In this document: piece by piece, positions 25,564 through 56,633 of the stretch
Layout: every line of letters starts with the position of its first letter
How positions within the stretch are numbered: the stretch's first letter is position 1
Origin: Bifidobacterium breve
Lineage (GTDB): Bacteria; Actinomycetota; Actinomycetes; S36-B12
Reading direction: 5' to 3'
Assembly (NCBI GenBank): GCA_945861775.1
Contig: CAMAVT010000001.1
Span: forward strand, 1-61,442
DNA: 61,442 nucleotides
Program-made: the position numbers and the translations under genes
Notes under the pieces: model-generated
What the model saw: only the letters and a program-made list of their open reading frames with translations
Databases searched by the model: none
Told to the model about the DNA's origin: nothing

Positions 25564-25760
25564 AGGAGGCCAAAGCACTCCTAAATGTCAGACCCATGTG
25601 AGATTCTTTAATTGTTCAAGAAAGCACCGGTAAGCCCTCTGGCTTGGTGCTTGCCAACCGCCCTCGTGACGGTGGCTCCGGAGGAAGAACAGCCCGAGTT
25701 TCATCTTTAGTTTGGTACTAAGGAGTTCACTCTCGGGAAGGTCGAGGTTGAAGGAGTGTT

Positions 25761-26513
25761 ATGAGTAAAGCCAATAAGAAGTTTTTGTTCAGCACGGAGG
25801 GTGTGGATTTTTCTGACGACTCCGCGATTGAGGAATTTGCCCGCACTGTGTGGGAAGCATTTATGAATGCGAATGGGGAGGAAAACAATGACACAAAAAA
25901 GAACAGTGAATTCGAAACGGAGCCGAATGTGCGGTTAAGCGCTCGGTATTTCGAGGCGGTGGCTTACGCGTCCGGTCTGCACGAAGGACAGACACGTAAA
26001 GGGACAACGATCCCTTACATGAGTCACCTGCTGGGGGTGTCATCTTTGGTTCTCGAAGCATTAGGTGATGAAGACCAGGCGATCGCCGCGCTGTTGCATG
26101 ACGCTGCCGAGGATTGCGGAGGAGAGCCACGGTTACAGGAGATAGATTCAATGTTCGGTCCGCGAGTGGCATCAATTGTTCGGGGGTGCAGCGATTCCCT
26201 GGTTCAAGATCCAACAGTGAAAGCTCCTTGGCGGGAAAGGAAAGAGGAATACATTGCACACCTACAGGGTGTTTCAATGGATGTTATTTTGGTTTCCTGC
26301 GCGGACAAACTGCACAACGCTCGCGCAATCTGGACGGATATTCAACGTGATGGTGTCGAAACCATGAATCGATTCAATGCGTCAGGTGAGGAAATCGCGT
26401 GGTACTACACCTCGCTGCTTGCGGCATTCGAATTACGCGGGGCACCTAAGGATCTGTTAATCCCGCTGCGGGAAGTGGTGCTCAACCTCTCGACGGCGTT
26501 GGAACCGTTGTAA
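25761..26513 (+). CDS. HD-domain hydrolase resembling the RelA/SpoT (p)ppGpp-hydrolase domain (small-alarmone-hydrolase-like)
   Basis: GQTRKGTTIPYMSHLLGVSSLV...AALLHDAAEDCG...ADKLHNARAI. Acidic ~50-aa N-terminal extension. Confidence 0.65.
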   Translation: MSKANKKFLFSTEGVDFSDDSAIEEFARTVWEAFMNANGEENNDTKKNSEFETEPNVRLSARYFEAVAYASGLHEGQTRKGTTIPYMSHLLGVSSLVLEALGDEDQAIAALLHDAAEDCGGEPRLQEIDSMFGPRVASIVRGCSDSLVQDPTVKAPWRERKEEYIAHLQGVSMDVILVSCADKLHNARAIWTDIQRDGVETMNRFNASGEEIAWYYTSLLAAFELRGAPKDLLIPLREVVLNLSTALEPL

Positions 26514-27913: not shown

Positions 27914-28159
27914 TCTTTCTGTGTGGTGGTGTCACGTCTCGTAGTGCTGCATGGGACCGACATTTCTTAGTTGCTTAGATTTCAGGGCGGTTGTCCACAA
28001 CCTTAATTTGTCTCTAGCCTTCCCTTTTCTTGCGCATTAGCGTGTGGTTCGTTGAGTTTTCTTGCTAGTGCGCTGTTGCCTCTTGGTCCCTGACCATAAA
28101 CCTCGCCTCCCGTGAAGTGTGCGGGAAATTTGTCGAGGGGAGTGGGGGTGATGGGAAGG

Positions 28160-28330
28160 ATGAACATTCCTTCGCCTAAAGAGAAAGGCCCAGCCAATTG
28201 GCTGGACCTACTCGTAAGGTTCGCCCTAGACAAGCGAATCTTAACACGGGTTGGAGTAATTGCGTCAAGCATTGCTTTACGTGAATTACTTCGATGGCTG
28301 CTTCACATGATCAGAAATGATTGGTGGTGA
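28160..28330 (+). CDS. 56-aa small protein, paralog of the two 53-aa ORFs at 42950-43488
   Basis: MNIPSPKEKGPANWLDLLVRFALDKRILTRVGVIASSIALRELLRWLLHMIRNDWW. Gap-free alignment to the 53-aa peptides, 23/53 identical by hand. Conserved SD GGGGGTGATGGGAAGG precedes the ATG. Confidence 0.55.
   Translation: MNIPSPKEKGPANWLDLLVRFALDKRILTRVGVIASSIALRELLRWLLHMIRNDWW
28178..28231 (-). ncRNA. predicted ~55-nt cis-antisense RNA of the small ORF
   Basis: Extended -10 TGTTAAGAT (complement of 28238-28246). Hairpin (complement of 28187-28208) followed by TTTCTCTTT. Prediction from sequence only. Confidence 0.3.
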
Positions 28331-28457
28331 GTCAGGTGGTGACGGCTTTAATCCGTCACCACTTCCCCACATCCCGAACGAGAAAATGAGAGTGCCGCTC
28401 TGGGATAGTCTCGTGGTGTGATGTGTTGGGCATTGATAATGCTGATGTGGAGGGGCG

Positions 28458-28943
28458 TTGAAGTTGGACGTTGACTGGTTTCCTACAGCTACTGCTAGTG
28501 AGATCTTGCCACGACTTTGGATGGGTGGGCTTACTGAGCAGGAACACCTTGGCGAGCCCCTTGAAGAGGATCACTACTCATTTGATAACCCACATGACCT
28601 CATCATCACCTTGTATGCGGATGCTCAGCCCGCACCGTGGGGTGTTGTTGAGTTGCGTTATGGGTTCCCTGATGACGATATTTCTGACGATCAAATAACT
28701 CCATGTTTACGGCTAGCGTGATATGGATGGGAGGAGTGGCGTTCTGGCGCAAGTGTCCTCATTCGTTGCCAACAAGGCGTTAATCGATCAGGGCTAGTCA
28801 CTGTGCTTGTATTGATGTTTGATGGCATGTCAGCAAATGACGCTATTTCTTTGGTGCGCAGTCGTCGTGGTGGTGCCGTGCTTAATAACAAGGCGTTTGA
28901 GAAGTGGCTGCGCGAGCAAGCACCCACACATTTGGAGGGCTAA
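28458..28943 (+). pseudogene. Cys-based (CX5R) dual-specificity/tyrosine phosphatase interrupted by an in-frame TGA
   Basis: 28458..28718 (…ILPRLWMGGL…) and 28722..28940 are in the same frame. The second part carries VLIRCQQGVNRSG (Cys codon 28767-28769, Arg codon 28785-28787). TGA at 28719-28721 sits between LRLA and YGWEEW. Confidence 0.7.
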
Positions 28944-28992
28944 TCAGGACAAGTTCACTCGTGGACGTCATTGCAACATATAGGGTTTCGGA

Positions 28993-29658
28993 ATGACAAA
29001 GTCTCGCATCTTCGCGATCACCGCTGCGATTTCATGGTTTGCCGTTGGTCTGGGTTTCGTGCTCAACGTCTTTAACGTCTACCCCGAGGCTGTGGTTGAA
29101 CCCTTTGCCTATGGAAATAATCCTGAAGGCATCGAAGGTCTTGTTGGTCGGACGATTGATTTCTTTAGCTACTTTACTTATCTCAGCAACATCATCGTGG
29201 CAATTGTTCTCACCATGCTGGCCCGCAATGTAAATCGGCATGGAGCAGTATTTGCCACCCTTCGCATGGACTCCTTGGTCATGATTTCGGTGACCGGCCT
29301 CGTCTACTACCTGCTCCTCGCCGCAGACGCCAATCCACAAGGTCTGCAGATCGTAAGTAATGCTCTCCTTCACTACATCATTCCGATTCTTACCGTGGTG
29401 GTGTGGCTTCTTATCGGACCGCGGGGGTTGTTCCGCCTCTGGATGGTTTTCGCGGCCTTGATTATTCCAATTCTGTGGGCGGTGTATGCCATGGTTCGTG
29501 GTGCAATCATTGATGCATACCCGTACGGCTTCTTAAATGCCCAGGAACTCGGATTAGGGACTGCCATTACCAATATTTGTGGTGTTGCAATTCTGGGTAT
29601 CGTTCTGGGATTGATCTATTGGGCGATTGATCGGCTGCTCAGCCGCCGGCGCTCATAG
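28993..29658 (+). CDS. Pr6Pr-family (FAR-17a/AIG1-like) six-TM membrane protein
   Basis: Six hydrophobic segments and the FFSYFTYLSNIIVAIV block I associate with Pr6Pr proteins. Confidence 0.55.
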   Translation: MTKSRIFAITAAISWFAVGLGFVLNVFNVYPEAVVEPFAYGNNPEGIEGLVGRTIDFFSYFTYLSNIIVAIVLTMLARNVNRHGAVFATLRMDSLVMISVTGLVYYLLLAADANPQGLQIVSNALLHYIIPILTVVVWLLIGPRGLFRLWMVFAALIIPILWAVYAMVRGAIIDAYPYGFLNAQELGLGTAITNICGVAILGIVLGLIYWAIDRLLSRRRS

Positions 29659-29700
29659 AGCCTATTGCTGATCTGTTCCTGCAGTCCGAACGTTGAAAGA

Positions 29701-29922
29701 TCAGGCTGCAGCTGCCATGGACTTACGGCTGGTGGTGTGCCAACCGCCGCAGGCATCACACGGGTAGGTGCGGATTTCACTGCGGTGTGATTGCGTGCCG
29801 AATTCGGCGGCGCGGGTGCGGGAAATACTGGCGTGGTGGAGAACCTGAACTGCGCTCTTGTGGTCGGGCCAACGCTTTTTACCCGTACGCGAACAGGTTT
29901 TTGGTCGTGGCTGCGGTCGCAT
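29701..29922 (-). CDS. small basic protein with a Cys/His C-terminal motif (zinc-ribbon-like)
   Basis: RBS AAGGGGGAAATC before the ATG. KRWPDHKSAVQVLHHA...RTYPCDACGGWHTTS resembles small actinobacterial/actinophage proteins. No named family recalled. Confidence 0.5.
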   Translation of the reverse strand: MRPQPRPKTCSRTGKKRWPDHKSAVQVLHHASISRTRAAEFGTQSHRSEIRTYPCDACGGWHTTSRKSMAAAA

Positions 29923-29974
29923 GATTTCCCCCTTGAGTTGTTTCTCTGGACATCATTCTTATGTAGGGGTCTGA

Positions 29975-30084
29975 CAGCCTTGATTTGTCACTGGTGTTCA
30001 CGTTTCTTGTTGGTGCCCTGTTGCCTCTTGGTCCCTGACCATAAACCTCGCCTAGAGAGAAAGGCCCAGCCAATTGGCTGGGCC
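29975..30084 (+). repeat. copy 4 (decayed) of the module: 5' UTR fragment plus hairpin only
   Basis: 30018-30053 is identical (36/36) to 28073-28108. Perfect hairpin GGCCCAGCCAATTGGCTGGGCC at 30063-30084. Lacks the 69 bp (28109-28177) that carry SD, ATG and codons 1-6. Confidence 0.7.
30054..30084 (-). terminator. intrinsic terminator (minus strand)
   Basis: Perfect 22-nt palindrome followed on the minus strand by TTTCTCTCT. Confidence 0.5.
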
Positions 30085-30508
30085 TCCTCAAATCTCCAGC
30101 ATTTTGGTTAGTAGTCGTAGAGACATCCGTTCTTGTTGTAGTGTGGATTGAGTTTGAATCCCTTGCGCTCCAGACTTTGCCGGATGGACTTGAGCTGTTC
30201 CTCATCTTGGAATCCCATCCAGTACAGCAAGTGATAGGTCGATACTAGAACCCTTCTTCATGTCTGCGTCTTGCAGTGACATTCCAACCAGAAGTCACGA
30301 TTTCTACTCCTGAAACACCGAGTGGGGTGATCAGGTGCCTGGGGTATCCGCCGTTGGGCATAACGTTCCTTTCGTCAGTTTTTATCTGGCTCAACGAATT
30401 TGTTGAACCCTGACACAACTCAAAGCACCCCTACGGGGTGCTAAAAGACGAGCGCGCGCGTGCACACGTGAAGGGGACGTTTTTGTGGTGTGAGATTGGC
30501 CCTTCTAC

Positions 30509-31696: not shown

Positions 31697-31783
31697 GTAA
31701 ATATAATAGCAGACATTAAATATACATGGTAGTTGTGATCAGATGAGCCGTCTCGATGAGGGGATCATGGAAATTCTCACTTC

Positions 31784-40000: not shown

Positions 40001-41436
40001 CAATCGCAACAAATGCTGGACGCGCTCACAACCCTTCCGAGGATCTTGTTGATCGATCCCTCGCGGACACAACCCACGCTCCGTACTGGACCGATCAAGT
40101 AGGTGCACCAAGCCCGTGCCAGCAATTACTCGCGAGTAAAGAATGCGATCTGGCAATTATCGGTGGTGGTTTTACCGGACTGTGGACCGCAATATTGGCT
40201 AAGGAAGCAGATCCGCAGCGCGAAGTAATTCTGCTCGAAGCGGAGACAATTGGATTTGGTGGTTCAGGTCGTAACGGTGGATTTATATCTGGCTCGCTCA
40301 CTCATGGTCTGGCTCATGGTGAAGCAATCTGGCCAAAGGAAATGAAAACCTTAGTGCGACTGGGAAATGAAAACCTCAATGCAATTGTTGACTTCACCAA
40401 GTCATAGGGCATCGATGCCGACATGCGCATCGTGGGCAAAACTGCGGTGGCGCTTAATGAACACTCTGTGCGGTCGCTGGAAGCAATGCACGCTCGGCAT
40501 GCCCAATGGGGTGAGGACAGTGAACTACTCGACCGCGATCAGATGCAAGCCGATGTTGCTTCACCCACCTATCTCGCTGGATTGCGGGTGCGCACCGGAA
40601 GTGGCTTGATGGATCCCGCTCGACTGAGCTGGGGGCTCAAGCGCGCTGCGTTGGCTCGCGGGGTGCACATCTATGAAAACACCCCGGCGTCCTTTCTTTC
40701 CAACCAACGTGACGGCGGAATAGCGTTGCAGACTCCCCTTGCTTCGGTGCGCGCCCGTCAGGTTGTTATTGCCACCAATGGCTTCACACCACTTCTTAAG
40801 CGGTTGCAGTATCGAATGCTGCCAATTTTTGACCACGTACTCGTCACTGAGCCACTCACTTCACGCCAATTAGCAGACATTGGTTGGTCACAGAATCAGG
40901 GAATGACCGATGTTGGTAATCAATTCCACTACTACCGGCGCACACCGGATAACCGAATTCTGTGGGGTGGCTACGACGCGATCTATTACCGCGGTAACCG
41001 CACCAACCGTGAGTTAGAGCATCGTGATGCGAGCCACCGACTTCTTGCCAAACAATTCTTCACAACGTTCCCGCAGCTGGAGGACCTGAGGTTCACCCAC
41101 AAGTGGGCTGGCATTATCGATTCAACGAGTCGGTTCACTCCCGCGATCGGCACCGCCATGAACGGCAAGCTTGCCTACGCCGTTGGTTACACGGGGCTTG
41201 GTACTGCTTCCGCCCGGTTCGGGGCCAACACAATGCTGGATTTATTAGCCAAACGGAAAACGGAACTGACCGAACTGACCATGGTGCGCCGCAAGCCGGT
41301 TCCATTCCCACCGGAACCTCTCCGTTACCCATTGGTGCAGTTCACCCGGTCACAGCTTATCCGCGAAGACCTCACGGGTAAACGTGGTATTTGGCTTTCA
41401 CTTCTTGATCGATTCGGTGTCGGATTCAATAGTTAG
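39997..41436 (+). pseudogene. FAD-dependent amine oxidoreductase (gamma-glutamylputrescine-oxidase/DAO-like) interrupted by an in-frame TAG
   Basis: ATG 39997 overlaps the PotA-like stop (ATGA). DLAIIGGGFTGLWTA dinucleotide fold. Track ORFs 39958..40407 and 40423..41436 share one frame (465 nt apart). TAG at 40405-40407 lies in ...FTKS*GIDADM... Confidence 0.7.
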
Positions 41437-41443
41437 GAATAAC

Positions 41444-42901
41444 GTGTCACAAGGCGTACACATCAACGGTCACACCCGCGATGGCAAAGGTCCCGTAATC
41501 GAGTTGATCAACCCGGCAACGGGTGAGGTGTGTGACTCGATCACTACCGCGAGTACTGCCGACGTTAGTGAGGCTGTTGCAGCCGCTGTCGCCGCGCAAC
41601 GCGATTGGGCAGCCCGCACACCCGGTGAACGGGCCAAGGTGTTACTGACGCTTGCCGATCTCATCGAAGCGGACGCGCCAGGAATTACGAAGTTGGAAGT
41701 TGATGAAACTGGTAAGCCCCGTGCAGTATTCCAAGACGGTGAACTTCCCTTCGCCGCGGACAACTTGCGTTTCTTTGCTGGAGCCGGGCGTTCCCTGGAA
41801 GGCACCGCAGCCGCTGAACTATCCACGGGTTACACGAGTCTCTTAATGCGCCAACCAATTGGAGTGGTGGGATCAATTACTCCGTGGAACTTCCCGTTCA
41901 TCATGGCGATCTGGAAAATCGGACCGGCTTTAGCCACGGGTAACGCCGTCGTGCTTAAACCGGCACCGGCAACACCACGCAGTTCCATTCGTCTCGCCGA
42001 GTTGGCAATACAAGCGGGTTTGCCAGCTGGATTGTTAAATGTGCTCTGCGGTGGCAATGACATTGGGGCAGCCATGGTTACCGACCCGGATATCCGGATG
42101 ATTTCGCTCACCGGCTCAACGGCGGCCGGCGAGGCCGTGATGTCTGCTGCGGCGCCTCACGTGAAGCGACTTCACTTAGAACTCGGTGGCAAAGCTCCAG
42201 CCCTAGTTTTCGCCGATGCCGATCTAGAACAGATGGCTCGCGCCCTCACGCTCGGAGCGACCTACAACTCCGGCCAAGACTGCACGGCTGCAACTCGAAT
42301 CTACGTGCACGCATCGCGCTACCAAGACACAGTTGAGGCAGTAGCACAAATGATGTCCACTGTTCGCGTGGGAGATCCGTGGGCGGACACCACTGATATC
42401 GGTCCTTTGATTTCCCAAGTCCACCGAGATCGCGTTGACGGGTTTGTCCAGCGCGCCCGTGCAGCCGGTGCACATATTGCTGCCGGTGGTGAACGCATTG
42501 ATTCACCCGGTTTCTACTACCCACCTACCCTCATTTCCGGTGCCGCCCAAAACAGTGAAGTTGTTCAAGGTGAGATCTTCGGTCCTGTTCTTGTGGTTGT
42601 TCCTTTTGAGTCAGAAGAAGAAGGGATTCATTTAGCGAATGACTCGCGTTATGGACTCGCCAGCTCGGTGTGGACCAATGACGTTGCTCGGGCACTACGG
42701 GTGAGTCAGCGCATTGAAGCGGGTGTCACCTGGATCAACGACCATCTTCCGATTGCATCAGAAGCTCCGCACGGTGGTGTAAAGGGAAGTGGATTCGGCA
42801 AAGACATGAGCCACGAATCATTGTTGGAGTACACAACAACGCACCACATTATGATCAAACACTCTGAGCCCGTGAAACACGATTCATTCCGACCAGCCTG
42901 A
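41444..42901 (+). CDS. NAD-dependent aldehyde dehydrogenase (aminobutyraldehyde-dehydrogenase-like)
   Basis: Start trimmed to GTG 41444 (AGGAA RBS). ITPWNFP, ELGGKAP and QDCTAATR catalytic blocks. Confidence 0.85.
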   Translation: MSQGVHINGHTRDGKGPVIELINPATGEVCDSITTASTADVSEAVAAAVAAQRDWAARTPGERAKVLLTLADLIEADAPGITKLEVDETGKPRAVFQDGELPFAADNLRFFAGAGRSLEGTAAAELSTGYTSLLMRQPIGVVGSITPWNFPFIMAIWKIGPALATGNAVVLKPAPATPRSSIRLAELAIQAGLPAGLLNVLCGGNDIGAAMVTDPDIRMISLTGSTAAGEAVMSAAAPHVKRLHLELGGKAPALVFADADLEQMARALTLGATYNSGQDCTAATRIYVHASRYQDTVEAVAQMMSTVRVGDPWADTTDIGPLISQVHRDRVDGFVQRARAAGAHIAAGGERIDSPGFYYPPTLISGAAQNSEVVQGEIFGPVLVVVPFESEEEGIHLANDSRYGLASSVWTNDVARALRVSQRIEAGVTWINDHLPIASEAPHGGVKGSGFGKDMSHESLLEYTTTHHIMIKHSEPVKHDSFRPA

Positions 42902-42949
42902 CGTGGAAGTGGTGGTAACCAAAGTCACCACCACCTGGCACGCATGCGG

Positions 42950-43111
42950 CTACTCCCGCATTACGTCAAAAAGCCATCGGAACAATTCGCGAAGCAAAAC
43001 ACTTAGCAGAACTGCTCCAACCCGTGCTAAGATCCGCATGTGTGGTGCGAACCCATTGGATTGACCCGGCCCTAGGGCCGGGTCTTTCCTTTTCAGCGCA
43101 GGATTTCTCAT
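42950..43111 (-). CDS. 53-aa small basic/amphipathic protein (below the ORF-track cutoff)
   Basis: Manual translation: MRNPALKRKDPALGPGQSNGFAPHMRILARVGAVLLSVLLRELFRWLFDVMRE. SD GGGGGTGATGTGAAGG precedes the ATG. The frame is conserved in unit 2 and at 28160. Confidence 0.55.
   Translation of the reverse strand: MRNPALKRKDPALGPGQSNGFAPHMRILARVGAVLLSVLLRELFRWLFDVMRE
43040..43094 (+). ncRNA. predicted ~55-nt cis-antisense RNA, unit 1
   Basis: Extended -10 TGCTAAGAT at 43025-43033. Perfect palindrome at 43063-43084 plus TTTCCTTTTC. Prediction only. Confidence 0.3.
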
Positions 43112-43326
43112 CCTTCACATCACCCCCTATCCCCTCGTAATTTCCCCGCAAACATCACAGGGATCGAGGACCCAGGTCAGGGACATAGGAATAACGCCGC
43201 ACCAACACACTCACTTAGCAGCACAACGCTAAATCAATCGCAAACCCATGCCAAGATACAAAGTGACGACTGTGGAAAAGCGGAAGTGGTGGCAACCGAA
43301 GTCACCACCACCTGGCACGCATGCGG

Positions 43327-43488
43327 CTACTCTCGCATCACGTCAAAGAGCCATCGGAACAATTCGCGAAGCACAAGGCCTAGCAAAACCGTCCCAACCC
43401 GTGCTACGATTCGCTTGTTGGTGGCGAACCTATTGGATTGTCCCGGCCCTAGGGCCGGGACTTTCTTTTTCAGCGCAGGATTTCTCAT
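43327..43488 (-). CDS. 53-aa small protein, tandem paralog
   Basis: MRNPALKKKVPALGPGQSNRFATNKRIVARVGTVLLGLVLRELFRWLFDVMRE. 42/53 identical to unit 1, and 8 codons differ only synonymously. Confidence 0.55.
   Translation of the reverse strand: MRNPALKKKVPALGPGQSNRFATNKRIVARVGTVLLGLVLRELFRWLFDVMRE
43417..43470 (+). ncRNA. predicted ~55-nt cis-antisense RNA, unit 2
   Basis: Extended -10 TGCTACGAT at 43402-43410. Palindrome at 43440-43461 plus TTTCTTTTT. Prediction only. Confidence 0.3.
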
Positions 43489-43703
43489 CCTTCACATCAC
43501 CCCCTATCCCCTCGTAATTTCCCTGCAGGAAACACAGGGATCGAGGACCCAGGTCAGGGACACAGGAATAACGCCGCACCAACAAACTCACTCAGCAATG
43601 CAACGCTAAAACAAAAACAAACTCAGGCCTAGGCGTAAAAAGATCACTGTGGACAACAATCAATGGCGGAGGGTGACTGTCAGTTGTGGAGTATGGTTTT
43701 CCA

Positions 43704-44201
43704 ATGAAGATCACTCGAGTCATCCTCGCGACTGTTCTGTCCCTTGGTCTGGTAACTGCTGCTGCGGTTGCACCCGTGACTGCTGCGGAGAAGCCGACTA
43801 CCGTTCGCGTGTACCACCAGGCCGTAAGCCCCATCGCGGTGAGTGGAACCGGCATCGGAACCGTGCGAACGTTCTTTATTCCAATATCGGTGGACGGAAA
43901 GTCGGCAGATAATCAGTACTTGACAGGCACGCTGACCACCCTTGATCCGGCTATGCCAAATGGTCAGGAACTACGCTCATCAAACCTCACCTATGTTTTT
44001 GGCGCTGAGAAAGATCAGATGGTCGTTGGTGGTGTGTCTCTTTACCCACCAGCTGGAGCAACAATTGCAGCCGGGCAAAGCACCGTCCGGCCAGTAATCG
44101 GTGGATCAGGGAAATACTCCGGCGCCCGCGGCCAGGTTGTTTCGACAAATATGGGTGCGAACGGTTGGACTCACATATTCAAGGTCTGGTTGGGGAAGTA
44201 G
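43704..44201 (+). CDS. secreted small protein, possibly dirigent/allene-oxide-cyclase-barrel-like
   Basis: Signal MKITRVILATVLSLGLVTAAAVAPVTA. GGSGKYSGARGQV resembles the dirigent-type GGTGxFxxARG block. Start trimmed to ATG 43704. Confidence 0.5.
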   Translation: MKITRVILATVLSLGLVTAAAVAPVTAAEKPTTVRVYHQAVSPIAVSGTGIGTVRTFFIPISVDGKSADNQYLTGTLTTLDPAMPNGQELRSSNLTYVFGAEKDQMVVGGVSLYPPAGATIAAGQSTVRPVIGGSGKYSGARGQVVSTNMGANGWTHIFKVWLGK

Positions 44202-44242
44202 TTGGTAACGAGTAAATATCACTTTTGGAGTATGGTTCTCTG

Positions 44243-44740
44243 ATGAAGATTTCCCGTCTCATCCTCGCAACGCTCCTGTCCCTTGGCCTAGTAACCGCTG
44301 TTGCGGTTGCACCCGTGACCGCTGCGGAAAAGCCAATTACGGTTCGCGTGTATCACCAAGCGGTAACCCCGATCGCCGTGAGCGGAACCGGTATCGGTGC
44401 CGTGCGGACATACTTCATTCCCATGGCAGTGGACGGCAAGTCAGCAGATGACCAGTACTTGACAGGCACGCTGACCACACTTGACCCGGCTATGCCGAAT
44501 GGCCAGGAATTGCGCTCATCAAATCTCACCTTTGTTTTTGGCGCTGAGAAAGATCAGATAGTTGTTGGCGGAGTTTCCTTTTTCCCACCAACTGGAGCCA
44601 CCATTGCAATCGGGCAGAGCACCACACGGCCAGTAATGGGCGGATCCGGGAAATACTCCGGCGCCCGCGGCCAGGTTGTTTCGACGAATTTGGGGGCGAA
44701 CGGTTTTACTCACACATTTAAGGTCTGGCTAGGAAAATAG
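44243..44740 (+). CDS. tandem paralog of the preceding secreted protein
   Basis: About 87 percent identical to 43704..44201 by hand count (22 differences in 165 aa). Confidence 0.5.
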   Translation: MKISRLILATLLSLGLVTAVAVAPVTAAEKPITVRVYHQAVTPIAVSGTGIGAVRTYFIPMAVDGKSADDQYLTGTLTTLDPAMPNGQELRSSNLTFVFGAEKDQIVVGGVSFFPPTGATIAIGQSTTRPVMGGSGKYSGARGQVVSTNLGANGFTHTFKVWLGK

Positions 44741-49400: not shown

Positions 49401-49648
49401 CAACGATCCCAAGGATCTGAAATTTCCTCAACCCCAAATGCGCGACGCTGGGCGTCCCATTTCGCATCAGTTGGACTACTGAAGATCAAACTTGCGCGTT
49501 CCCATGAAACCCAATTATCCCCAAAAAGTGGCGTAATTTTTGCAACAGGCCGACCCGCTACTGTGACCGTCACCGTCTCACCGGCTTCCACCTCACGCAA
49601 GACTTCGCTGGCATTTTGGCGCAATTCCCGCACCCCAATCGTTGACAT
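49400..49648 (-). CDS. Phd/YefM-family antitoxin
   Basis: MSTIGVRELRQNASEVLREVEAGETVTVTVAGRPVAKITP is the family-typical N-terminus. Confidence 0.8.
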   Translation of the reverse strand: MSTIGVRELRQNASEVLREVEAGETVTVTVAGRPVAKITPLFGDNWVSWERASLIFSSPTDAKWDAQRRAFGVEEISDPWDR

Positions 49649-50647: not shown

Positions 50648-50856
50648 AGAGTATTAAACACTTTTAGTTGTCGATAACCGCTGGCATTTTGGCGCAATTC
50701 CCGCACCTCAATCTAATTAAAGTCAGCCAACATTGATGGCGGTAAAACTATGCTGTGGATGGAAATTGGACTTGTAGCGCAGCGTCCTGGGGCCGCGAAT
50801 AAGTCGTCGCTACCAGCGCGAATTGGGTCACCCCGTATGACTCGTATTATTTGGGC

Positions 50857-55099: not shown

Positions 55100-56359
55100 T
55101 TAAATTTCCGTAGCCTCAAGCAATCGAGCTGCTTCAAGGAAAGGTTCGAGAGGAGCTCGGAAACAACCTGCTCCAATTTGTCCACCATTTTTTCCGGCGA
55201 TGCCCACGTCCATGAGAGGAGCAATTTTTGTTAGCGCAACAAGTTGCACGCTTATTCCGGCCGGTGTCCCCCGGTAATCAAAGAATGGAATGTGAAACCA
55301 AGGGTGCTCAGCCACAGCGATCTCGTACATCTCAAGGTTCCTTGCGACCATGTCTGCGGCCGATCCGCCCTGGTATCTCTGCAAGGGGAATGCGGTCGCC
55401 TGCGCCATTGCTCCCAGTCCGCAGGTTTCCGTGATGGGACTTTCTCCACCCATTACTTCAATGTCGTCGGTTGTGAATCCAGGAAACAACCCACTGGTTT
55501 CAACTTTGGGAAGTGGGCCGCGGAACCAACGATCTCCAAAGCCCGCAACACGAATTCCGAATTCCTTGCATGAAAAGGCCATCGCAGTCACGATCCCTGA
55601 GCCGGGTGTGCCACTCATTTGATCGGCGAGCAATTTACACGCAGCCATAGAGATTCGAAGGAAGAAGTACTCACCGGTCATGAAATATGACGTCAATTCC
55701 TTCGCTCTCGCTGGTTCCATCGACACGAGCGCTGGCATGACATCACGCAGGAATAGAAGCGAAGCTGCGGTATTGCGACTATGAAGTTCATCTCCCATGT
55801 GCAGCGCACGTTGCATAATCGGGATCACGCGTATGGGTTCAGGCAGACTGTGAATCAATTCACTCAATGCAGGACCTATTACCGATGCCAGGTACTGAAG
55901 ATTGTTTTCAACTTCCTCGTTGTAAACACCGTAGTTAAGCCGGCTAGTCCCAGCTCCTTCAAACAAGGTGCAAAAAGCTTTTTGATTAGTTTTTTGGTCC
56001 GCAAGAACAAGCACCGGCATTGACGCCGTTGTCACACCTGCCAAGGATCCAATGCAGGAGAAGTCGTGGCACCCGCGTACGAGGATTTCACCTGCATCAA
56101 GTTTGGCGATTGCGTCATCAGAACTCGATGCGAGACGCTCGTATAGGGCTCCGCCAATGATCGCGTTTCTCTGGCCGCCCGTGTATTCACGCCATTCCAA
56201 CGGTGGCCCAGAAGTCAGAATGAGATTTGGTGTCATGCCGGGGACTACGGAGAGTGCCGGTGCTACGTCAACCAAGATGGGGTCGCACTCAAACATGGCT
56301 GCGAGGGCCGGATCTGTGATGGCCGAAGTATCAAAGCGACTCATAATCAAACCGCCCAT
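55100..56359 (-). CDS. DUF1116 (YlbE/AllG-like) protein
   Basis: Collinear similarity to E. coli YlbE as I recall it (LILTSGPPLEWREYTGGQ, MGDELHSRNTAAS, IVTAMAFSCKEFGIRVAGFGDRWF, GQIGAGCFRAPLEPF). Start is 56359 or ATG 56344. Confidence 0.75.
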   Translation of the reverse strand: MGGLIMSRFDTSAITDPALAAMFECDPILVDVAPALSVVPGMTPNLILTSGPPLEWREYTGGQRNAIIGGALYERLASSSDDAIAKLDAGEILVRGCHDFSCIGSLAGVTTASMPVLVLADQKTNQKAFCTLFEGAGTSRLNYGVYNEEVENNLQYLASVIGPALSELIHSLPEPIRVIPIMQRALHMGDELHSRNTAASLLFLRDVMPALVSMEPARAKELTSYFMTGEYFFLRISMAACKLLADQMSGTPGSGIVTAMAFSCKEFGIRVAGFGDRWFRGPLPKVETSGLFPGFTTDDIEVMGGESPITETCGLGAMAQATAFPLQRYQGGSAADMVARNLEMYEIAVAEHPWFHIPFFDYRGTPAGISVQLVALTKIAPLMDVGIAGKNGGQIGAGCFRAPLEPFLEAARLLEATEI

Positions 56360-56371
56360 TCATCGGGATTA

Positions 56372-56387
56372 GCCAAAAGGTTTTGGC
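56372..56387. promoter_or_regulatory. palindromic operator candidate GCCAAAAGGTTTTGGC
   Basis: 7-2-7 perfect palindrome, 13 bp upstream of the DUF1116 start. Its reverse complement recurs 89 bp away. Confidence 0.5.
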
Positions 56388-56460
56388 AAACCGATGAAAT
56401 AACTTGGTGCTTACGAATCATGGTGCTCCCTGAGTCTAAGAGTGCGATATGTTGACTTTT

Positions 56461-56476
56461 GCCAAAACCTTTTGGA
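56461..56476. promoter_or_regulatory. palindromic operator candidate GCCAAAACCTTTTGGA
   Basis: Second site. 15/16 match to the reverse complement of site 1. Confidence 0.5.
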
Positions 56477-56633
56477 AACTTTCGGTGAAGATTAGCACTC
56501 ACGTTAGTGAAGTCAAGGGGAATTAAATAATTCTTTTGGGAAATTTTGACAGAGCCAACCATGAAAATGAGGTTCGCAGGCCACGAACCGGGTGTGTACA
56601 TTCATGGGATGCGGGAATTGAGGGGTGTTGACT

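Follow-up and report, generated by a model that had tools for sequence, protein, structure and literature searches.

The analysed stretch, referred to here as the window, comprises positions 1-61,442 of contig CAMAVT010000001.1 (assembly GCA_945861775.1) and carries several copies of a small module in which a short open reading frame (ORF), a structured leader and a putative antisense RNA unit are combined. One copy, designated type A, lies on the forward strand, and two type B copies stand in tandem on the reverse strand as a 377-nt repeat, with 90% identity between copies 1 and 2 according to the repeat finder (Table 1). The type A copy had been described in a first-pass annotation, made from the letters alone, as a third and diverged member of this group, and the relationship was upheld. 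At the DNA level 28051-28365 matched 43219-42906 and 43596-43283; the 56-residue peptide, encoded inside a longer ORF, aligned without gaps to the 53-residue peptides of 42950-43111 and 43327-43488, with 23 of 53 residues identical (43%); and about 110 nt upstream of the ORF, as well as the hairpin behind the stop codon, were found to align too. The divergence of roughly 60 percent given for the copies fits the protein only, the DNA being ~30-35% divergent (~70% identity between types A and B by blastn). The count of three copies was confirmed, and a fourth, degraded copy had been missed. This copy runs from the first 58 nt of the 5' untranslated region (UTR) to the Lys codons and palindrome and then to the terminal CTCCAGCAT of the module, with two internal deletions, and has neither the ORF nor the antisense -10 element; in the repeat finder, 28051-28108 recurred at 29996-30053 and 28172-28213 at 30048-30089.

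Table 1. Features of the module copies in the window.
Feature	Position	Strand	Remarks
Type A module	28051-28365	+	predicted structured mRNA of ~315 nt: 5' UTR 28051-28159, ORF, 3' hairpin; nhmmer E 4e-103
Sense promoter -10-like hexamer TAGCGT (TAnnnT), predicted	28038-28043	+	7 nt upstream of predicted mRNA 5' end
Pyrimidine-rich anti-Shine-Dalgarno strand CUGUUGCCUCU	28073-28083	+	pairs with 28144-28154; helices 4 and 5, 99% of cells paired
5' UTR hairpin	28101-28138	+	outer CCUCG/CGAGG 28101-28105/28134-28138; inner UCCCG/CGGGA 28108-28112/28122-28126
G-rich Shine-Dalgarno region GGGGGUGAUGG	28144-28154	+	sequestered by 28073-28083; GGGGGUGA conserved in all types
Start-codon hairpin GAAGGA/UCCUUC	28155-28173	+	UG of AUG in loop; helix 9, 99% paired; in the diverse set retained, with double changes
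ORF, 56 aa (most relatives 53 aa)	28160-28330	+	within 72-aa GTG ORF 28112-28330
Antisense T-run TTTCTCTTT after hairpin	28178-28186	-	sense codons Lys-Glu-Lys
Predicted cis-antisense RNA, candidate antitoxin, ~54 nt	28178-28231	-	complementary to codons 7-24
Palindrome GGCCCAGCCAATTGGCTGGACC	28187-28208	.	9-bp G+C-rich stem, 4-nt loop; sense mRNA hairpin / antisense terminator stem; terminator scan
mRNA hairpin AGGUUCGC/GCGAAUCU	28217-28241	+	9-nt loop 28225-28233; types A and B: 96% of cells paired; diverse set: compensatory changes
Antisense extended -10 TGTTAAGAT (complement)	28238-28246	-	in codons Ile27-Leu28-Thr29
Long hairpin in C-terminal codons	28250-28295	+	helix 12: 14 pairs, 98.9% of cells paired, 2 with double changes; kept in the diverse set
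3' hairpin after stop codon, 12 bp, without U-run	28334-28364	+	helix 15: 4 pairs with double changes, 97.5% of cells paired
Degraded fourth copy	29996-30102	+	repeat families D3 and D4; nhmmer
Type B module copy 1	42906-43219	-	mRNA; ORF 42950-43111; sense -10 TAGCGT 43226-43231
Type B copy 1 antisense unit	43025-43094	+	TGCTAAGAT 43025-43033; predicted start G 43040; terminator stem 43063-43084; T-run 43085-43094
Type B module copy 2	43283-43596	-	mRNA; ORF 43327-43488; sense -10 TAGCGT 43603-43608
Type B copy 2 antisense unit	43402-43471	+	TGCTACGAT 43402-43410; predicted start G 43417; terminator stem 43440-43461; T-run 43462-43471

When the three window copies were compared with all loci by blastn, 53 copies were obtained, 44 of them distinct and frequently arranged in tandem. 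A profile of the three window peptides retrieved five proteins only among 5.8 billion clusters, and 15 were retrieved when 1.84 billion representatives were searched exhaustively by profile. The genome matches were all metagenome-assembled genomes, belonging to Candidatus Nanopelagicales (Actinomycetota) with one carrying the label Aquiluna and another the label Actinobacteria bacterium alone, and 30 loci from aquatic metagenomes were added to the family. A second protein search, after which the loci were fetched, yielded more distant members with 35-45% identity, designated types C and D. A match in Archangium (locus L014; 44% identity over 38 residues) was probably spurious and was not used. 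No module match came from phage or plasmid records (blastn in distant mode) or from the viral contigs of IMG/VR, and these searches therefore gave no evidence of module carriage on mobile elements. On the sequences searched, the distribution of the module is very narrow and patchy, in Candidatus Nanopelagicales and close relatives.

The coding capacity of the module was evaluated across the family. The canonical ATG with a frame of 53 or 56 codons was present in 30 of the 44 distinct copies and the first 53 codons were open in 38, the 14 copies without a canonical ATG-to-stop ORF owing this to a premature stop, to frameshifts or deletions, to a missing start or stop codon, or to truncation of the copy. 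Nucleotide entropies at codon positions 1, 2 and 3 were 0.22, 0.22 and 0.40, respectively, in type A, the third position having about twice the variation of the first two. The ratio of nonsynonymous to synonymous substitutions (dN/dS; Nei-Gojobori, within type A) was 0.31 overall and, by segment, 0.10 (codons 1-6), 0.74 (codons 7-25) and 0.17 (codons 26-53), ratios which are indicative only since the pair counts are phylogenetically non-independent. Among 26 proteins, E42 was invariant and P11, R26, G32, S37, R41, R45, W46, L47 and R52 were at least 90% conserved. The peptide consists of a Pro/Lys-rich N-terminus, a variable middle and a conserved cationic amphipathic C-terminal helix; AlphaFold modelled one helix over residues 11-55, with block means of the predicted local distance difference test of 90 and 93 over residues 31-50, and the C-terminal 18-mer had a hydrophobic moment (muH) of 0.57-0.69, with a net charge of the peptide of +2 to +8. 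By these comparative measures, the ORF encodes a genuine peptide in which the cationic amphipathic helix is conserved and the N-proximal third is weakly constrained as protein. The same data bear on the idea that the module is a non-coding repeat, such as a miniature inverted-repeat transposable element, a REP-like repeat or a structured non-coding RNA, in which the ORF is fortuitous. Its repeated and sometimes tandem arrangement, its palindromes, its location at rearrangement junctions and the long open frames found on the opposite strand in some copies would fit such a repeat; the third-position bias, the low dN/dS of the C-terminal half, the open frame in 38 copies and the conservation of residues down to ~35-45% identity do not, and neither does the lack of terminal inverted repeats (none reported in the repeat-finder run) or target duplications. 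The repeat reading is so improbable that it is effectively excluded, a transposable or REP-like origin being rejected on the coding evidence. A conserved antisense protein was also ruled out, as the opposite-strand frames vary in frame and length from copy to copy.

The sense transcript was characterized by its promoter signal and its fold. In 26 of 30 copies, spanning types A-D, a TAnnnT hexamer preceded alignment column 1 at -13 or -12, and this position, 12-13 nt upstream, suggests 28051 as the likely mRNA 5' end. A full sigma-70 scan (-35 plus -10) gave no match near any copy, and the promoters proposed here are of the -10-only or extended -10 kind. The 315-nt type A RNA had a minimum free energy of -130 kcal/mol (z -6.15), followed by values of -150.4 kcal/mol (z -8.54) for type B and -128 kcal/mol (z -5.37) for type C. 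Covariation was assessed by pair counts with shuffled and slid controls. The consensus fold of 27 full copies contained 89 pairs, with 97.6% of pair cells paired versus 35-48% with slid partners, and 18 pairs had changes on both sides versus 4-9 when slid, values that none of 500 shuffles reached; many of the copies were drawn from closely related populations, so that these counts of covarying cells overstate the independent events and lend the proposed function correspondingly less weight. In a diverse set of 14 copies, double changes were found in 33 of 71 pairs. The abundant G.U pairs, which would be C.A on the other strand, indicate that the fold belongs to the sense RNA; similarly, the many G.U pairs between 28073-28083 and 28144-28154 imply that this helix forms only in the sense RNA.

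Several individual helices were informative. The two stems of the 5' UTR hairpin were present as the first-pass annotation had drawn them, the outer one invariant in the 27 copies and the inner one showing, in types C and D, double changes that include compensatory C-G to U-A. The hairpin after the stop codon was also present, with 12 bp at 28334-28364 (first described as 10 bp at 28336-28362). In types A and B the mRNA 5' end (28051-28072) pairs, with covariation, with 28222-28245 in codons 21-29 (helix 1). The long-range 5'-end helices were not recovered in the diverse alignment, in which the 5' ends align poorly, and the long-range closing helices are likely to be a property of types A and B only; in the modelled folds of these types the 5'-end helix would shut off the translation-initiation domain in full and hide the antisense target. 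Both the Shine-Dalgarno region and the AUG were sequestered in the predicted folds, a restraint on translation, seen in silico, of the kind that type I toxin mRNAs have.

Signals for a transcript of the opposite polarity were found inside the codons of the ORF, beginning with a candidate terminator. The palindrome occupies the same codons as GACCCGGCCCTAGGGCCGGGTC and GTCCC...GGGAC in the tandem type B units with a different sequence, and is directly preceded on the sense strand by AAAGAGAAA, purine-rich Lys codons that provide a T-run on the antisense strand; both points had been noted in the first-pass annotation and were borne out by the terminator scan, in which an antisense hairpin with a 7-10-bp G+C-rich stem and a T-rich run was called in all three window copies. 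These three calls ranked first among the terminator-like sites in the 40 kb scanned. The T-run had 5-8 T in its first 9 nt in 42 of the 43 copies aligned here (the exception, the frameshifted L035, had 3 T), and the corresponding runs in types C and D were TTTTTCTTTT, TTTTCTTTTT and TTTTTT, with different stems. The palindrome itself was found with 18 distinct stem sequences and with double changes at three of its nine pairs, types B and D carrying other stems at the same codons. The proposal that the hairpin-arm codons are constrained as RNA rather than as protein fits these double changes and the contrast in dN/dS between codons 7-25 and 26-53. In the sense hairpin of the window's own type A copy, a C.A mismatch (28189/28206) corresponds to a G.U pair on the antisense strand.

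The second signal was an extended -10 element on the antisense strand, which likewise lay where it had been annotated, with its counterparts in both type B units. The motif TGnTAnnnT was kept in 42 of the 44 distinct copies, as seven variants differing solely at the four n positions. In one of the exceptions (L010) a single TTA to TGA change both destroys the -10 and creates a premature stop in the ORF, and in the other (L009) the -10 is lost and the ORF is intact. The corresponding codons of types C and D held TGCTAGAAT, TGCTAGGCT, TGCTAGGAT and TGCTATGAT; in one copy of type D, TACGGT was present and the TG missing. The codon under the TA was always TTA, CTA, GTA or ATA, the amino acid varying and the TA remaining constant; NTA codons account for 13.6% of the Leu, Val and Ile codons in window genes. 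In the window, TGnTAnnnT was found 20 times compared with 67 +/- 7 in shuffles, an approximately threefold depletion, and three of the 20 sites lie in the modules. Such depletion elsewhere would be expected for a real promoter signal that is avoided outside its sites. Full -35/-10 matches were also below expectation in the window. A further instance of the motif lies at 31703-31711 (-), its end 7 nt ahead of the ATG (31696) of an AAA_14/DUF4143 gene; this spacing suggests that the gene has a leaderless transcript.

The production of an antisense RNA is suggested by these promoter and terminator signals. Its start was placed at the G 7 nt downstream of the -10 (28231) and its end at the T-run (~28178), and the predicted molecule comprises a 23-nt single-stranded 5' tail, the terminator hairpin and a U-run (z -4.1). 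It was also considered that no antisense RNA is made, the palindrome being an mRNA structure and the -10 a by-product of the coding sequence and the 5'-end helix, so that the module would be a small-protein gene with a structured leader that is self-repressing and perhaps condition-sensing. The very strong and covarying sense fold counts towards such a gene, as do the first two of three observations that count against the antisense unit. Four of the -10 bases also sit in the covarying helix 1, with covariation at two pairs, and since they pair with the mRNA 5' end, part of the -10 conservation needs no promoter. Among hairpin variants that break the stem on one strand and leave a wobble on the other, seven keep the antisense stem and four keep the sense stem, neither strand being clearly favoured. 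Additionally, canonical terminator-like sites were not enriched overall in this genome (26 versus 21 and 25 versus 22 expected). Nevertheless, a leader by itself would leave unexplained the constant antisense T-run in four types with different N-terminal residues, the fixed TG, TA and final T against varying n positions, the four-fold-degenerate third base of the Thr/Ala codon, which is unpaired in the fold and always A, and the occurrence of a motif avoided in the rest of the genome; this alternative is considered improbable. The persistence of the -10, hairpin and T-run in spite of the replaced stem sequence supports a functional sense/antisense unit, and the recurrence of the arrangement in 44 distinct copies, taken with the depletion of the motif in the window, places the observation beyond chance. 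The first-pass annotation had argued for a functional sense/antisense unit over a chance duplication, and this reading was supported: the 44 distinct copies showed purifying selection, compensatory changes in the fold and antisense signals persisting through types A-D, with the ORF canonical in the proportion given above.

The highest entropy in the module was found at 28225-28230, that is, at +2 to +7 of the predicted antisense RNA, and this hexamer falls within the 9-nt loop that the conserved mRNA hairpin 28217-28241 forms. Copies sharing a contig were 91% identical over the UTR and 90% over the 3' half of the ORF; the figure was 76% for the antisense 5' tail and 48% for the hexamer. It is proposed from this pattern that the hexamer may act as the specificity determinant between paralogues; a simpler alternative is relaxed constraint at an unpaired loop and protein linker. 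Chimeric modules were also observed (L002 235-548 and L033 1393-1651), in which a type B leader and C-terminal half enclose a segment of type A that starts at the ATG and ends near codon 20 (protein P0001); the swapped segment corresponds approximately to the antisense-RNA cassette.

The module is best explained, in our judgement and with confidence slightly on the favourable side, as a multi-copy chromosomal type I toxin-antitoxin-like family of Candidatus Nanopelagicales and close relatives. In the proposed mechanism, the TAnnnT promoter would drive an mRNA of ~315 nt encoding the 53-56-residue presumed toxin, whose size is within that usual for type I toxins (<60 residues) and which is under purifying selection. 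The 109-nt leader would keep the full-length RNA poorly translatable, its CCUC-containing strand pairing with the G-rich Shine-Dalgarno region and the AUG being held in a hairpin. From the opposite strand, the extended -10 in codons 27-29 and the terminator in codons 7-16 would yield the ~54-nt RNA, perfectly complementary to codons 7-24, whose hypervariable 5' nucleotides may contact the mRNA hairpin loop and nucleate a duplex; this duplex could block translation, trigger cleavage or both, and the variability of the hexamer would keep co-resident paralogues from cross-reacting. The repression of the mRNA by the antisense RNA is thus a predicted one, and the peptide is presumed to be toxic, indirect hints being the multi-copy arrangement, the decay of copies and the defence-island setting. 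Two further properties speak against this assignment. The Shine-Dalgarno spacing is odd, GGGGG lying 11 nt from the AUG and AGGA abutting it, and the maximum Kyte-Doolittle 19-residue mean of the peptide was 1.0-1.5, under the threshold of 1.6 for a membrane span, most known type I toxins having a transmembrane segment.

The main rival to the toxin-antitoxin assignment is a small-protein gene with cis-antisense regulation, in which a non-toxic membrane-associated or regulatory peptide has its level tuned by the antisense RNA. All of the evidence at the RNA level applies to it equally, and an amphipathic helix without a transmembrane segment or a match to any toxin family would suit it. It accords less well with the tandem multi-copy arrangement and frequent decay, which are typical of selfish toxin-antitoxin modules, with the patchy and very narrow distribution (15 representatives among the 1.84 billion proteins), with the existence of copies that keep the antisense half only, and with the location in variable regions adjoining other toxin-antitoxin or Abi genes, distant members lying next to AbiEi/AbiEii, Phd-PIN, Abi_2 and HNH genes. 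A gene of this kind is judged unlikely, if by no means negligible.

Type I systems have been reported only from Proteobacteria, Firmicutes and Tenericutes, together with one cyanobacterial candidate of 2025 (PMC12390103, PMC5367252), and a search artefact is suspected behind this apparently narrow distribution (PMC5367252, PMC12390103). As an Actinomycetota candidate found through RNA and locus features and not through homology, the toxin-antitoxin-like family would widen the known range. The broader claim, of a first type I family in Actinomycetota with the antitoxin promoter and terminator in toxin codons, a hexamer address code insulating paralogues and modules serving as recombination anchors around variable cassettes, is offered tentatively, and as a whole we incline somewhat against relying on it. 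The module would be a compact natural case of three overlapping codes within ~60 nt, namely protein, mRNA structure and antisense promoter with terminator, and its hypervariable recognition segment could serve in studies of how cross-talk is avoided among paralogous antisense pairs. Its hosts are uncultured bacteria abundant in aquatic habitats, in which the use of RNA regulators, terminators and defence or addiction modules is little known.

The surroundings of the modules were variable. In several relatives the 3' end of the module (28366) joins window position 30094 directly, a junction which defines 28367-30093 as a 1.7-kb cassette between the full module and the relic copy. In the cassette are a DSPc-like ORF split in two (28458-28721 and 28803-28943), the gene for a membrane protein of 221 residues and a Cys-containing ORF of 73 residues. 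The last of these (29704-29922, -) recurs at L010 530-742 and L036 1193-1411 with 79-84% identity and the motif CDACGGWHTTS, divergently upstream of the module in three contexts; it had no Pfam match and may be a linked partner gene of the module. Other relatives have part of the cassette followed by a module without UTR and ATG in which the antisense signals are kept. In these copies (L015 1206-1412; L016, L017 and L018 2306-2512; L026 54-260) CTG replaces ATG and the 5' UTR is absent, the frame, antisense -10 and terminator being retained, and they may be antitoxin-only remnants. At L038 124-1544 the module is split by a 1.4-kb insertion with a 437-residue transposase-like ORF containing a DNGSEF-type integrase-core motif; model positions 220-224 occur on both sides of the insertion, which suggests a 5-bp target duplication. 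Beside the tandem modules, in the region 42901-42945, the 3' hairpin of copy 1 starts 4-5 nt past the stop codon of a convergent aldehyde-dehydrogenase-like ORF (41384-42901) and could end both convergent transcripts. Also immediately beside them, a 171-residue protein with a signal-peptide-like N-terminus is duplicated in tandem at 43686-44201 and 44225-44740 (+), with DNA 82% identical and without a Pfam match.

Three further features of the window were recorded. A SAM-IV riboswitch at 25614-25748 (+) scored 53.1 bits against a gathering score of 38 and lies directly upstream of ORF 25761-26513, which encodes a 250-residue HD_4-domain protein and has no obvious link to sulfur or methionine. 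A 32-nt inverted repeat whose arms are 67 nt apart (56359-56489) and a 35-nt direct repeat (49606-49640 and 50679-50713; 97% identical, 1073 nt apart) are unrelated to the modules.

The module was finally compared with known systems. The peptides had nothing at E <= 1 in Pfam, PADLOC or PHROGs, including no Hok_Gef match, one chance-level match to a phosphotransferase system transporter model in NCBIfam (E 0.18), and only a hit with E 0.87 in the PDB; none of the known type I toxin families of Pfam and NCBIfam (Hok_Gef, Ldr, Fst, Ibs, TisB and others) was matched significantly. At the gathering score, Rfam gave in the window only the SAM-IV element elsewhere, with far sub-threshold noise at E <= 10, and no antitoxin RNA family (Sok, Sib, IstR, RatA, SR4 and others) matched the module at that score. 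Paralogues of Ibs/Sib are told apart through variable recognition segments, a likeness to the hexamer of the module. Likewise, Sok recognises the loop of its target hairpin through a 5' tail that is single-stranded, as is proposed here. By its predicted layout the module groups with AapA/IsoA and Ibs/Sib, the type I families whose antisense RNA sits wholly within the mRNA and overlaps the ORF (PMC8594479). Ibs/Sib of Escherichia coli resembles the module in being multi-copy, chromosomal and often tandem, with the antisense RNA inside the toxin transcript (PMC8594479). Nevertheless, Sib spans the whole ORF of 18-19 residues, whereas the predicted antisense RNA covers codons 7-24 of 53-56; Ibs is very short and hydrophobic, unlike the cationic amphipathic helix of the module; and the two share no sequence or covariance-model match and belong to different phyla.

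AapA1/IsoA1 of Helicobacter pylori is similar in its highly structured full-length mRNA with a sequestered ribosome-binding site (PMC6733600), its several chromosomal copies and its small helical toxin peptide. IsoA1 covers the 5' UTR and start codon, whereas the antisense RNA of the module would extend from codon 24 to ~18 nt past the AUG; the long-range helix of types A and B joins the 5' end to codons 21-29 and not to the 3' end, and no homology was found. The hok/Sok system of plasmid R1 and enterobacterial chromosomes shares the compact inert mRNA fold that hides the ribosome site and the antisense target, and decayed chromosomal copies are common in it too. In contrast, the module is without an overlapping leader ORF (mok), the -1 and +1 frames not being conserved between copies, Hok is a transmembrane peptide, and Sok acts upstream of hok (PMC8594479), whereas the antisense unit of the module lies inside the ORF. 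In its mRNA logic the module resembles both hok and aapA1 (PMC6733600). MsoT1/MsoA1 of Microcystis aeruginosa is a comparable candidate from outside Proteobacteria, Firmicutes and Tenericutes, also found by locus features and not by homology (PMC12390103); it is unrelated in sequence, comes from another phylum and has toxicity data in E. coli, whereas the module is known in silico and has much deeper comparative support for its RNA elements. The module differs from the known type I systems in the position of the antisense RNA, in having both antisense signals within codons, in its non-transmembrane peptide and in its phylum.

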